Made by a program: the position numbers and the translations under genes. Shown here in pieces: positions 26,781 to 27,245 of a stretch of 64,000 nucleotides of DNA. The stretch is from a virus (lineage: Duplodnaviria; Heunggongvirae; Uroviricota; Caudoviricetes). Every line of letters starts with the position of its first letter. Positions within the stretch are counted from its first letter, which is position 1. The notes under the pieces are model-generated. The model ran no database searches and was not told the DNA's origin. It saw only the letters and a list, made by a program, of their open reading frames with translations. Location of the stretch: positions 1 to 64,000 of the IMG/VR virus record IMGVR_UViG_2684623133_000001. One strand, given 5' to 3'.

Positions 26781-26921
26781 GATGGTGCGAGCAGGACGCA
26801 GGTCGGTTACCACTTGTAATGGAGAGGTCGCGGGTTCGAGTCCCGCCAGCCAGCCCCCGGCTGTAGCTCAGTTGGCAGAGCGCTAAACCCCGGTCAGCAC
26901 ACACACGTTCGCCCCATCACC
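26781..26921 (+). ncRNA. YrlA-like Y RNA unit 2 with permuted tRNA-like module
   Basis: Terminal helix GATGGTGCGAGC with GTTCGCCCCATC. T-arm GCGGGTTCGAGTCCCGC. Acceptor-like stem CAGCCAG/CCGGCTG capped by a CCC loop. D-arm TAGCTCAGTTGGCAGAGCGC. CCGGTCAGCAC motif. Confidence 0.6.
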
Positions 26922-26940
26922 CAACACAACTCCATGCACA

Positions 26941-27080
26941 GCACGGTGTGAACAGGACTTCGTTCGGTTATCTCCTTTCCTGAGAGAGACGCGGGTTCGA
27001 ATCCCGCCAGCCACGAAAGTGGTTGTAGCTCAGCGGCCTAGAGCGCTAAACCCGGACGAAACCCACACGCTCACACCACC
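26941..27080 (+). ncRNA. YrlA-like Y RNA unit 3 with permuted tRNA-like module
   Basis: GGTGTGAAC pairs with GCTCACACC. Hairpin TCTC-CTTTCCT-GAGA. T-arm GCGGGTTCGAATCCCGC. 7-bp acceptor stem CAGCCAC/GTGGTTG closed by a GAAA tetraloop. D-arm TAGCTCAGCGGCCTAGAGCGC. Confidence 0.65.
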
Positions 27081-27104
27081 TCAAACACCAGCAGACGCAT
27101 GCGC

Positions 27105-27245
27105 GCAGGCGGTGTGGACAGGACGCAGGTCGGTTACCAAAACAGTCAGGTGTGGGTTCGAGCCCCACCACCTCGCTCGCGGGGTGTAGCCCAATTGGTA
27201 GAGGCAATTGTCCACATACGCCGGTCAGCACCCCACACGCCCACG
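27105..27245 (+). ncRNA. YrlA-like Y RNA unit 4 with permuted tRNA-like module
   Basis: GGCGGTGTGG pairs with CCACACGCC. T-arm GTGGGTTCGAGCCCCAC. 7-bp acceptor stem CACCTCG/CGGGGTG closed by a CTCG loop. D-arm TAGCCCAATTGGTAGAGGC. CCGGTCAGCAC motif. Confidence 0.6.

Follow-up and report, generated by a model that had tools for sequence, protein, structure and literature searches.

The first 64,000 nucleotides of the viral record IMGVR_UViG_2684623133_000001 (Caudoviricetes), referred to here as the window, contain a gene for an orthologue of the Ro60 protein (rsr) and, just upstream of it, three modules that resemble parts of a tRNA arranged in the wrong order. The question raised by this locus is whether the modules are tRNA genes, the remains of tRNA genes, or parts of functional RNAs of another kind. 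According to the evidence below, it is very probable that they are the cores of three YrlA-class Y RNAs, which belong to a six-gene tandem array (units U1 to U6) upstream of the Ro60 gene of the phage. The mimicry of tRNA by YrlA RNAs is established, and with these units the known YrlA/Y RNA family gains new members. Arrays of six to seven units of conserved subtypes, together with an operator-like palindrome, are modest new details.

The modules of U2, U3 and U4 were detected by direct sequence reading and by a pattern script (Table 1). All three share one layout, in which a T-arm of 17 nucleotides (nt) with the loop UUCGA(G/A)N is followed without spacer by a closed acceptor-like hairpin of 7+7 nt, then by UA and by a D-arm carrying A14, R15 and G18-G19. 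The permuted order of T-arm, acceptor and D-arm, with the loops CCC, GAAA and CTCG, had been proposed in a preliminary description of this DNA and was reproduced by both approaches. Its other structural statements hold as well: the acceptor-like stem is closed and has 6-7 base pairs (bp), with 6/7, 7/7 and 7/7 positions paired in U2, U3 and U4, and no anticodon arm joins the D-arm to the T-arm in any of the three units. The claim that strands pair better within a unit than in the conventional gene order is likewise borne out, as pairing across units reaches only 5/7 (U2 5' strand with U3 3' strand) and 4/7 (U3 with U4). A V hairpin lies 5' of the T-arm in each module-bearing unit. The nucleotides of the tRNA elbow and core, U8:A14, G18-G19, U54:A58, U55, C56 and a covarying 15:48 pair, are kept in U2-U4. 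In this respect the modules do resemble the top half of a tRNA, as had been suggested; however, they are not free-standing, each being the effector domain of a complete Y RNA, in which the stem made by the 5' and 3' ends is the presumed binding site of Ro60. Similarly, the interval 26826-27206 first assigned to the feature covers the three module cores but only these cores, which sit inside units of 132-137 nt; the units number six in total and occupy 26633-27499.

The scaffold around the modules became visible through repeat analysis, in which six direct repeats spaced by 144-166 nt were found between 26632 and 27500. The repeats start with the consensus GUGaAC-AGGAc-gcaGGUCGG-UUAy and end with CCGGUCAGC-aCaCACAC-GuUCac. 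Every unit consists of a 9-bp stem P1 formed by its 5' and 3' ends, an asymmetric internal loop (5' AGGAC, 3' ACACACAC), a second 9-bp stem P2 with an invariant UCGG/CCGG core, the sequence UUAY, and a variable module. Scripted counts across all six units gave 8-9/9 pairs for P1 and 7-9/9 for P2. The cognate P1 strands form 50 of 54 possible pairs, a total that only 4 out of 720 rearrangements of the 3' strands attain, and the cognate P2 strands form 46 of 54 (matched by 24 of 720); double-sided changes among the six units are seen at P1 positions 2, 3, 5 and 7. On the + strand of the 64 kb, the anchor GGTCGGTTA (at most one mismatch) occurs in the six units only. Because a closed stem, an internal loop, a second stem and a variable module adjoin Ro60, the units are interpreted as Y RNAs. 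Three of them are full YrlA RNAs (U2-U4), one has a T-arm and hairpin only (U5), and two are without tRNA-like arms; since U1 and U6 contain neither a T nor a D module, they are regarded as Y RNAs but not as YrlA. A 15-nt insert follows the D-arm of U4. In U5, a D-loop-like sequence, CAATTGGTTAATGCA (27308-27322), occupies the V position 5' of the T-arm and is 80% identical to the D-loop region of U4.

Table 1. Coordinates of the Y RNA array, of the elements within its units and of the flanking features in the window
Feature	Position	Strand	Description
tRNA-Ser, tRNA-Arg	1181 and 1318 (tRNA-Arg 1318-1393)		chromosomal part of the window
Putative promoter and overlapping operator for the whole array	26576-26603	+	suggested by conservation of the palindrome
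Promoter parts	26576-26581; 26587-26602		TTGCAG; palindrome CTATAC-CGCG-GTATAG, 16 bp
-10-like hexamer	26598-26603 or 26600-26605		TATAGC or TAGCTT
U1	26633-26751	+	P1 GACGUGAAC/GUUCACGUC 9/9; P2 GCAGGUCGG/CCGUCCAGC 7/9; UUAU
U1 module			69 nt, three hairpins, without T or D arm
U2, full YrlA, widespread subtype	26784-26915	+	P2 GCAGGUCGG/CCGGUCAGC; UUAC; V hairpin 26810-26822; G15:C48
U2 module	26830-26881
U2 T-arm	26830-26846		GCGGG-UUCGAGU-CCCGC
U2 acceptor-like hairpin	26847-26863		CAGCCAG-CCC-CCGGCUG; 6/7 pairs, one C.A
U2 D-arm	26866-26881		GCUC-AGUUGGCA-GAGC, after UA
U3, full YrlA	26945-27077	+	P2 UUCGUUCGG/CCGGACGAA 9/9, compensatory relative to U2; UUAU; G15:C48
U3 V hairpin			UCUC-CUUUCCU-GAGA
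U3 module	26991-27044
U3 T-arm	26991-27007
U3 acceptor-like hairpin	27008-27025		CAGCCAC-GAAA-GUGGUUG; 7/7 pairs, one G.U
U3 D-arm	27028-27044		after UA
U4, full YrlA, second conserved subtype	27111-27247	+	P1 GGUGUGG/CCACGCC; P2 GCAGGUCGG/CCGGUCAGC; UUAC; A15:U48
U4 module	27152-27205
U4 T-arm	27152-27168		GUGGG-UUCGAGC-CCCAC
U4 acceptor-like hairpin	27169-27186		CACCUCG-CUCG-CGGGGUG; 7/7 pairs, one G.U
U4 D-arm	27189-27205		3-bp stem, after UA
U5, partial tRNA-like module	27276-27396	+	P1 GAUGUGAAC/GUUCACAUC 9/9; P2; UUAU
U5 module	27320-27336; 27337-27357		T-arm GCAGG-UUCAAUC-CCUGU; 9-bp hairpin, loop CUA; no D-arm after
U6, minimal	27421-27499	+	P1 GGCACGAGC/GUUCGCGCC 8/9; P2 CGCAGUCGG/CCGGCAGCC 7/9; UUAC
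U6 module			30 nt, one small hairpin; position next to rsr, as YrlB
rsr (Ro60 orthologue, 571 aa)	27529-29244	+	GTG start; ribosome-binding site AAGGAG 27519-27524

The comparative sample comprised 22 Ro60 loci from bacterial genomes, 22 from viral contigs, and the phages ET08 and Sparky; individual loci are cited by L numbers. The T-hairpin-D layout upstream of Ro60 was also found in Actinomycetota, Armatimonadota (Fimbriimonas), Poribacteria and others, and same-strand linkage to Ro60 was seen in nearly every locus. From locus to locus the sequences of the acceptor-like hairpins are unrelated yet paired, with loops of 0-24 nt. When 10 units were aligned with MAFFT, RNAalifold predicted the P2, T, acceptor-like (AS) and D helices. 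In this alignment 94.5% of cells are paired and 10 pairs show double-sided changes, while slid partners reach 35-51% and none of 500 shuffles attains the paired cells or the covariation score. Among 27 units from 20 loci, 94.3% of cells are paired (33-49% with slid partners; 0/500 shuffles), and double-sided changes affect all six AS pairs, all seven pairs of P2, the closing helix, and three of the five T pairs, the D stem being essentially invariant. The 27-unit alignment was fitted to a covariance model, which favours structure, whereas the MAFFT/RNAalifold result and the raw hairpin table are without that bias.

A covariance model (R1) built from the 10-unit alignment finds units outside its training set in ET08 (78 bits), L009, L013, L007, L014 and L023. 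Its matches, including those in Sparky and in Actinomycetota, Armatimonadota and Poribacteria loci, always lie on the Ro60 strand and just upstream of that gene. In the window it scores U2 at 107.7 bits, U3 at 90.5, U4 at 63.7 and U5 at 29.3 (E 4.4e-6). Among the tertiary contacts, the Levitt pair 48:15 is never mismatched: 20 units have C:G and 6 have U:A. Both forms are present within the window, where U2 and U3 have G15:C48 and U4 has A15:U48; U8:A14, T54:A58, U55 and C56 show no variation across the compared units.

The assignment to YrlA is consistent with these results. The Rfam YrlA model (RF02553) is the best match for all three modules (U2 37.6 bits, E 2.7e-6; U3 28.9; U4 28.5), and its alignment to U4 is full length. 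Of the features by which YrlA RNAs are defined (Chen et al. 2014), the following are present in the window: the units share their strand with a Ro60/Rsr (TROVE) gene and stand less than 4 kb from it; the T stem-loop stands 5' of the D stem-loop with a closed AS between them in U2, U3 and U4; the tRNA tertiary contacts and the covarying Levitt pair are kept; and YUAY precedes the V region in every unit, as UUAC in U2, U4 and U6 and as UUAU in the others. GUUAYC is kept even in the Poribacteria loci. The long stem formed by the 5' and 3' ends, a hallmark of Y RNAs in general, is found in all six units. The sequence also has the prerequisites for Ro60 binding, for modification by TruB and DusA, and for RNase P cleavage with CCA tailing (conserved scaffold, U54-U55-C56 T-loop, D-loop uridines, and 7-bp stems in U2-U4). 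The preliminary view of the modules as tRNA mimics of the YrlA class rather than tRNA genes is thus supported by Ro60 linkage, by the best Rfam match and by the tertiary contacts. In the alignment to the YrlA covariance model that had been suggested, YrlA was indeed the top match for each module, though under the gathering score.

Several observations weigh against this interpretation. All three modules fall below the Rfam YrlA gathering score (37.6, 28.9 and 28.5 versus 69 bits). The CGAA motif that is presumed to contact Ro60 close to the 5' end of YrlA (Chen et al. 2014, PMC4201824) is absent in its literal form GNCGAAN0-1G from the six units, where its counterpart is AGGA, or AGAA in U1. 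Minimum free energy (MFE) folds of the single U2 and U4 sequences prefer other pairings (z = 0.45 and -0.07). U1 and U6 are supported mainly by P1/P2 and the shared motifs, with U6 the weakest of the six units (z = -0.10). Finally, a related prophage was reported to be mostly silent in the lysogen (PMC8092301).

Concerning the first point, controls gave 37.4 bits for the ET08 YrlA, 36.6 for Sparky and 33-46 for other Ro60-linked units. Because the ET08 RNA, a named member of the family, also fails (37.4 versus 69 bits), the Rfam threshold is uninformative for this branch, and the lack of any YrlA in the window at the gathering threshold was discarded as counter-evidence after this control. As for the motif, its counterparts in relatives are CGAA in L008 and in the short unit of ET08, CGGA in Sparky and L003-L006, and CGAG in the ET08 YrlA; part of the Ro60 recognition may be carried by the invariant UCGG/CCGG core of P2.

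Folding energies give a mixed picture, favouring U1, U3 and U5 but not U2, U4 or U6. The MFE fold of U3 recovers P1, P2, V, T and the acceptor hairpin, although not the standard D stem, and is more stable than all of 200 shuffles (z = -4.15). P1 and P2 are recovered in U1 (z = -1.65) and U6, and P1, P2, T and the hairpin in U5 (z = -2.27). In constrained folds, the family fold costs 3.4 kcal/mol over the MFE in U2, 0.1 in U3 (with the D stem) and 5.6 in U4. The competitor in U4 is a 9-bp helix between GUGUGGACA (27112-27120, in the 5' P1 strand) and the clade-specific insert UGUCCACAU (27209-27217); this alternative fold, 5.6 kcal/mol more stable in the model, could be a switch or noise. The loop-capped stem, which the preliminary description had proposed to confirm by folding, is therefore recovered by the MFE fold of U3 and by RNAalifold, while the MFE folds of U2 and U4 differ. 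Covariation was given more weight than MFE, since tRNA-like folds rely on tertiary contacts that the energy model lacks.

The arrays of relatives indicate how the units have persisted. Units per locus were counted by covariance model, as a heuristic of regular expressions and pairing had missed some units and produced spurious ones and was dropped. Seven viral contigs with a Ro60 98-99% identical to that of the window have the same six units. In L033 (IMGVR_UViG_2795385756_000001; Ro60 98% identical), a seventh unit, an additional full YrlA, stands between U2 and U3 (2245-2390) and belongs to the subtype of the second unit of L034 and L036; copy number thus varies among close relatives. Related prophage contigs carry two to five tRNA-like units and up to seven units in total, and contigs with a Ro60 63-75% identical have two to four R1 matches plus short units. 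Four tandem YrlA-type units also lie upstream of Ro60 in the non-actinobacterial Fimbriimonas metagenome-assembled genome L009 (3046-3574); arrays with several YrlA copies thus occur beyond mycobacterial prophages.

Mutual identity among the three YrlA of the window is only 55-70%. The U2 type is widespread; the U4 type (A15:U48, with CAAUUGU after the D-arm) is also present in L039 and L006, the U5 type in L036:2779 and L033:2762, and short last units in L036, L039, Sparky and ET08. The acceptor-like hairpin of U3 is that of the U2-type unit of L034. Given the low mutual identity and the recurring subtypes, the array is made up of old, distinct subtypes with some exchange of modules, and not of the products of a recent amplification. 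In the literature search, phage or prophage YrlA were found only as single occurrences, the supplementary tables of Chen et al. 2014 lying outside its scope, and neither Ro nor Y RNAs were mentioned in the M. abscessus prophage papers searched.

A further observation concerns the V hairpin. In U2-type units it has a 7-nt loop with the anticodon-loop signature Y-U-NNN-R-A, and variation is concentrated at the three "anticodon" positions (CUUGUAA, CUUCUAA, CUGUUAA, CUUUUAA, AUUGCAA). The signature was seen in U2 (26810-26822) and in L033, L034, L039, L041, L042, L006, L008, L003, L004 and L026. Judging from the sequence, this loop may be a vestige of a tRNA origin.

Other explanations of the modules have to be weighed against a Y RNA array. 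The one that survives best accepts that the units are Y RNAs and holds that the modules act mainly as independent decoys or sponges for tRNA-directed enzymes rather than as tethers for Ro60. Three to four different tRNA-like modules per array, kept as conserved subtypes, would suit such a role, as would 7-bp stems of the kind RNase P cleaves in M. smegmatis and the toxin-antitoxin pair BrnT/BrnA, encoded a short way upstream on the opposite strand. Defences that target tRNAs are common; however, most anticodon nucleases need a true anticodon arm, which is absent in the units. Moreover, every module keeps the conserved P1-loop-P2 scaffold around it and its link to Ro60, an argument for Ro60 binding as one component of the function. 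A role mainly as decoys is therefore improbable.

It has also to be considered that the modules could be in decay and now functionless, left over from a phage tRNA cluster or from attachment sites derived from tRNAs. Clusters of tRNA genes are frequent in mycobacteriophages, and in Sparky four such genes stand just upstream of the Y RNA; integration sites also duplicate tRNA 3' ends, and the prophage in the window integrates into the 3' end of a tRNA-Arg. Decay is nevertheless difficult to reconcile with the compensatory changes by which the permuted order, closed hairpin, P1/P2 and tertiary pairs are kept across phyla, with distinct unit subtypes shared by prophages whose Ro60 is only 54-75% identical, and with the same-strand Ro60 linkage in nearly every locus sampled. 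Such an origin of the present sequences is very improbable.

The weakest alternative is that the units are real tRNA genes, whether conventional, intron-containing (a D-arm combined with the T-arm of the next unit), or permuted with rearranged transcripts. ARAGORN does call a tRNA-Thr(tgt) at 26778-26856, which is annotated as gene 51 in the phage record MW584167, and, with introns allowed, a tRNA-Thr(cgt) over 26856-27016 with a 70-nt intron, running from the U2 D-arm to the U3 T-arm; the anticodon-loop-like 7-nt loops of the V hairpins point the same way. The first call was rejected, for it has 4/7 acceptor pairs and is made of the U2 5' scaffold, the V hairpin as anticodon arm, the T-arm and the 3' acceptor-like strand; ARAGORN was misled because the U2-type V hairpin carries the anticodon-loop signature. 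The second, the kind of candidate that the preliminary description had named as able to overturn its reading, was examined and rejected as well: its intron lies at position 33/34 rather than 37/38, it has two acceptor mismatches and an anticodon stem drawn from the conserved GGUUA, and the supposed "intron" is made up of P2-3', P1-3' and P1-5' strands, each covarying with a partner in the unit to which it belongs. The expectation that tRNA finders would stay silent, or report a pseudo or permuted tRNA, was only partly correct, as the Rfam tRNA model (RF00005) gave no match in the array at threshold (best clan matches at most 19.3 bits versus 29) but ARAGORN called a tRNA-Thr, judged false. Considering also that acceptor strands pair at 5/7 and 4/7 across units against 6-7/7 within them, and that in loci with a single module (ET08, Sparky) there is no further unit from which the other tRNA half could come, real tRNA genes are scarcely credible here. 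The false tRNA-Thr is not annotated in the twin record OQ417969, and it is the "1 tRNA" listed for prophiGD43A-5 in a published table (PMC8092301).

The Y RNA array stands in a prophage. The window is bacterial chromosome up to 1356 and prophage from 1357 onward. By megablast, 1357-25000 corresponds to the first 24 kb of Mycobacterium phage prophiGD43A-5 (MW584167), with 91% identity over the aligned 77%, and also aligns with prophiT37-1 (OQ417969); 26500-29300 is 96% and 95% identical to the two records, respectively. The homology starts at window position 1357, equal to record position 1 of prophiGD43A-5 and inside the tRNA-Arg (1318-1393). The phage prophiGD43A-5 belongs to cluster MabK and is integrated at attB-1, overlapping a tRNA 3' end (PMC8092301). 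From sequence comparison, the host element is a MabK-type Mycobacterium abscessus prophage, and the array lies about 25 kb into it, among rightward genes. The rsr product matches Pfam TROVE (5e-46), vWA_Ro60 (2e-63), the RNA-binding protein PHROG 850 (9e-106), and the structures PDB 2NVO (D. radiodurans Rsr, 9e-103) and 1YVP (Xenopus Ro60, 5e-100); it is annotated as "Ro-like RNA binding protein" in MW584167 and OQ417969. The last Y RNA unit ends 30 nt before the start of rsr, and all units lie 30-896 nt upstream on the + strand. Pfam and PHROGs scans of the neighbouring open reading frames (ORFs) did not find RNA-repair or tRNA enzymes.

Just upstream, a BrnT-like toxin/antitoxin pair (25657-26108, - strand) is transcribed divergently from the array; the BrnT/BrnA pair has been described as inside the early lytic genes (PMC8092301). 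Between this pair and the array, a gap of about 530 nt (26100-26630) has no annotation in related records. It contains the end of a Gly/Ser-rich ORF (25860-26531) without family match and a 24-nt inverted repeat (26405-26428 / 26511-26534).

Each locus has a single copy of a conserved palindrome, CT[GA]TAC-N4-GTA[CT]AG, which always stands just 5' of the leading Y RNA unit. A TANNNT-type hexamer falls within the right half of the palindrome, and a TTGNNN hexamer is found 16-17 nt upstream. In 440 kb there are 18 matches versus 0.14 expected, in at least six distinct variants, with one in the 64-kb window; further examples are L026:2970, L037:2796, L041:2321, L043:2473 and L047:2609. No promoter was detected in a scan for the sigma-70 consensus. 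That the hairpin at 26586-26603 is terminator-like was considered and rejected, as relatives retain the palindrome but lack a conserved U-tract. The palindrome probably serves the array and rsr as promoter and operator. No such palindrome stands before the other units, and terminator-like sites were not detected between units or before rsr. The spacers (26752-26783, 26916-26944, 27078-27110, 27248-27275 and 27397-27420) are C/A-rich and G/T-poor, and several of them, in the window and in relatives, have ACAAC(T)N3-5ATAG shortly before the next P1, a motif that may be a processing signal.

Taken together, these features suggest how the locus might work. Because the palindrome is found only before the first unit and internal terminator-like sites were not found, one regulated promoter (26576-26603) could drive the six units and rsr as a single precursor, whose C/A-rich spacers would be trimmed back to the P1 stems. 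By analogy with characterised relatives, Ro60 would bind the conserved P1-loop-P2 region of every unit, the variable modules would present different surfaces that recruit effectors, and the tRNA-like modules would likely be TruB and Dus substrates. A cut by RNase P in the acceptor-like loop, followed by CCA addition, is plausible for U2-U4 because their stems have 7 bp, as in M. smegmatis. The U2 loop is CCC, and a cut would therefore leave ...CAGCCAG-CCC, one A short of N73-CCA. The earlier statement that the modules lack a CCA end and could never be aminoacylated is thus too strong, considering that RNase P cuts the M. smegmatis YrlA, whose stem also has 7 bp, and that this RNA receives a CCA tail. 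A purpose in phage growth is likely, given the position of the locus among early lytic genes. While the phage grows lytically, the particles might redirect host RNA decay or quality control, for example via PNPase as in the Thermus phage Ro60, or they might instead interfere with tRNA-directed host factors; both ideas are speculative.

An extension of this scheme, offered tentatively and on balance unlikely, is that the array represents a diversified panel and not redundancy: distinct mimics would let one Ro60 engage several host tRNA-binding factors, RNase P would cut the 7-bp-stem units, which would then be CCA-tailed, and a single operator-controlled promoter would govern the whole set. It is based on the U2, U3, U4 and U5 types, at least three of which are kept as separate subtypes in divergent prophages. 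If true, split tRNA-like particles would enter, block or sense host tRNA processing, charging or defence. The array is in any case a natural comparison set, with three to four different tRNA-like Y RNAs and non-tRNA-like ones under one putative promoter. What stays constant (P1-loop-P2, UUAY, T and D stems, tertiary pairs) would mark the needs of Ro60 and its partner, and the variable parts (acceptor-like stem, V hairpin, D-loop) possible specialisation. The 7-bp stems make the RNase P and CCA observation from M. smegmatis testable in a second system, the clinically relevant M. abscessus. In practical terms, the units described here yield false tRNA annotations, and the Rfam YrlA threshold misses actinobacterial and phage members.

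Among known systems, the permuted tRNA genes of Cyanidioschyzon merolae also place the 3' half before the 5' half, and tmRNA combines a T-arm with an acceptor mimic. Both are processed to a free, chargeable CCA end, and the permuted genes have a complete anticodon arm. In contrast, the acceptor in the window is closed, there is no anticodon loop, and the partner is Ro60. The Y RNAs Yrn1 and Yrn2 of Deinococcus radiodurans are more similar, as several Y RNAs lie upstream of rsr and a T-arm-like element is present; they differ from the window units in how T-like and D-like elements are ordered with respect to the ends and in having no clear D-arm. Yrn1 tethers Rsr to PNPase, and the tRNA-likeness of the Deinococcus Y RNAs is regarded by Chen et al. 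as of independent origin (PMC4201824).

Phage-encoded relatives are closer in setting. In the Thermus phage phiLo, Yrl1 and Yrl2 lie directly upstream of a phage Ro60 and share the stem-bulge-stem scaffold (PMC12135203). A Ro60-Y RNA-PNPase complex is reported there, and hijacking of the host PNPase is the proposed role (PMC12135203). Unlike the window, phiLo has two RNAs, defined by the CGAA motif, and the available parts of that account report no tRNA-like domain. The YrlA of the cluster C mycobacteriophage ET08 was named by Chen et al. 2014 (Fig. 1D, PMC4201824). Like the units described here, the ET08 and Sparky YrlA are phage-encoded, lie upstream of a Ro-like gene, have the GUCGGUUAY anchor and P1/P2, and obtain similar Rfam scores. 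They occur as one tRNA-like unit with one or two short units, compared to six units here, and the acceptor-like hairpin of ET08 has a 16-nt loop.

With the YrlA of Salmonella Typhimurium (RF02553; PDB 6CU1, bioRxiv 10.1101/312249), the window units share the T-arm, the closed acceptor-like stem-loop and the D-arm, a closing "anticodon" stem formed by the 5' and 3' regions, the conserved tertiary contacts and Ro60 as partner. The Salmonella RNA differs in its 6-bp stem, which RNase P does not cleave, its small V region, its GNCGAAUG motif, and its place in the RtcR-controlled rsr-yrlBA-rtcBA operon, while the window units differ in Rfam scores of 28-38 bits, a V hairpin, and AGGA in place of CGAA.

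The closest parallel is offered by M. smegmatis YrlA/YrlB (Chen et al. 2014), which likewise stand upstream of rsr on the same strand, with the T-acceptor-D order, a 7-bp stem and a short second Y RNA next to rsr. The 7-bp acceptor-like stem of M. smegmatis YrlA is cut by RNase P in vitro; in vivo, halves of the RNA match this cleavage, the 5' half bears an added CCA end, and YrlA and YrlB are reported as a single precursor (PMC4201824). The sequence comparison, which rests on published probe sequences only, shows that the U2 V arm TTACCACTTGTAATGGAGAGGTC is nearly the same as TTACCACTTCTAATGGAATGGTC from the M. smegmatis YrlA-5' probe (reverse complement), and that the V arm of the L033 U2 has the same CCACTTCTAATGG loop as this probe. 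U6 is without the T-arm reported for M. smegmatis YrlB. Compared to the two chromosomal Y RNAs of M. smegmatis, the window has six, three of them full YrlA, and carries them in a prophage.

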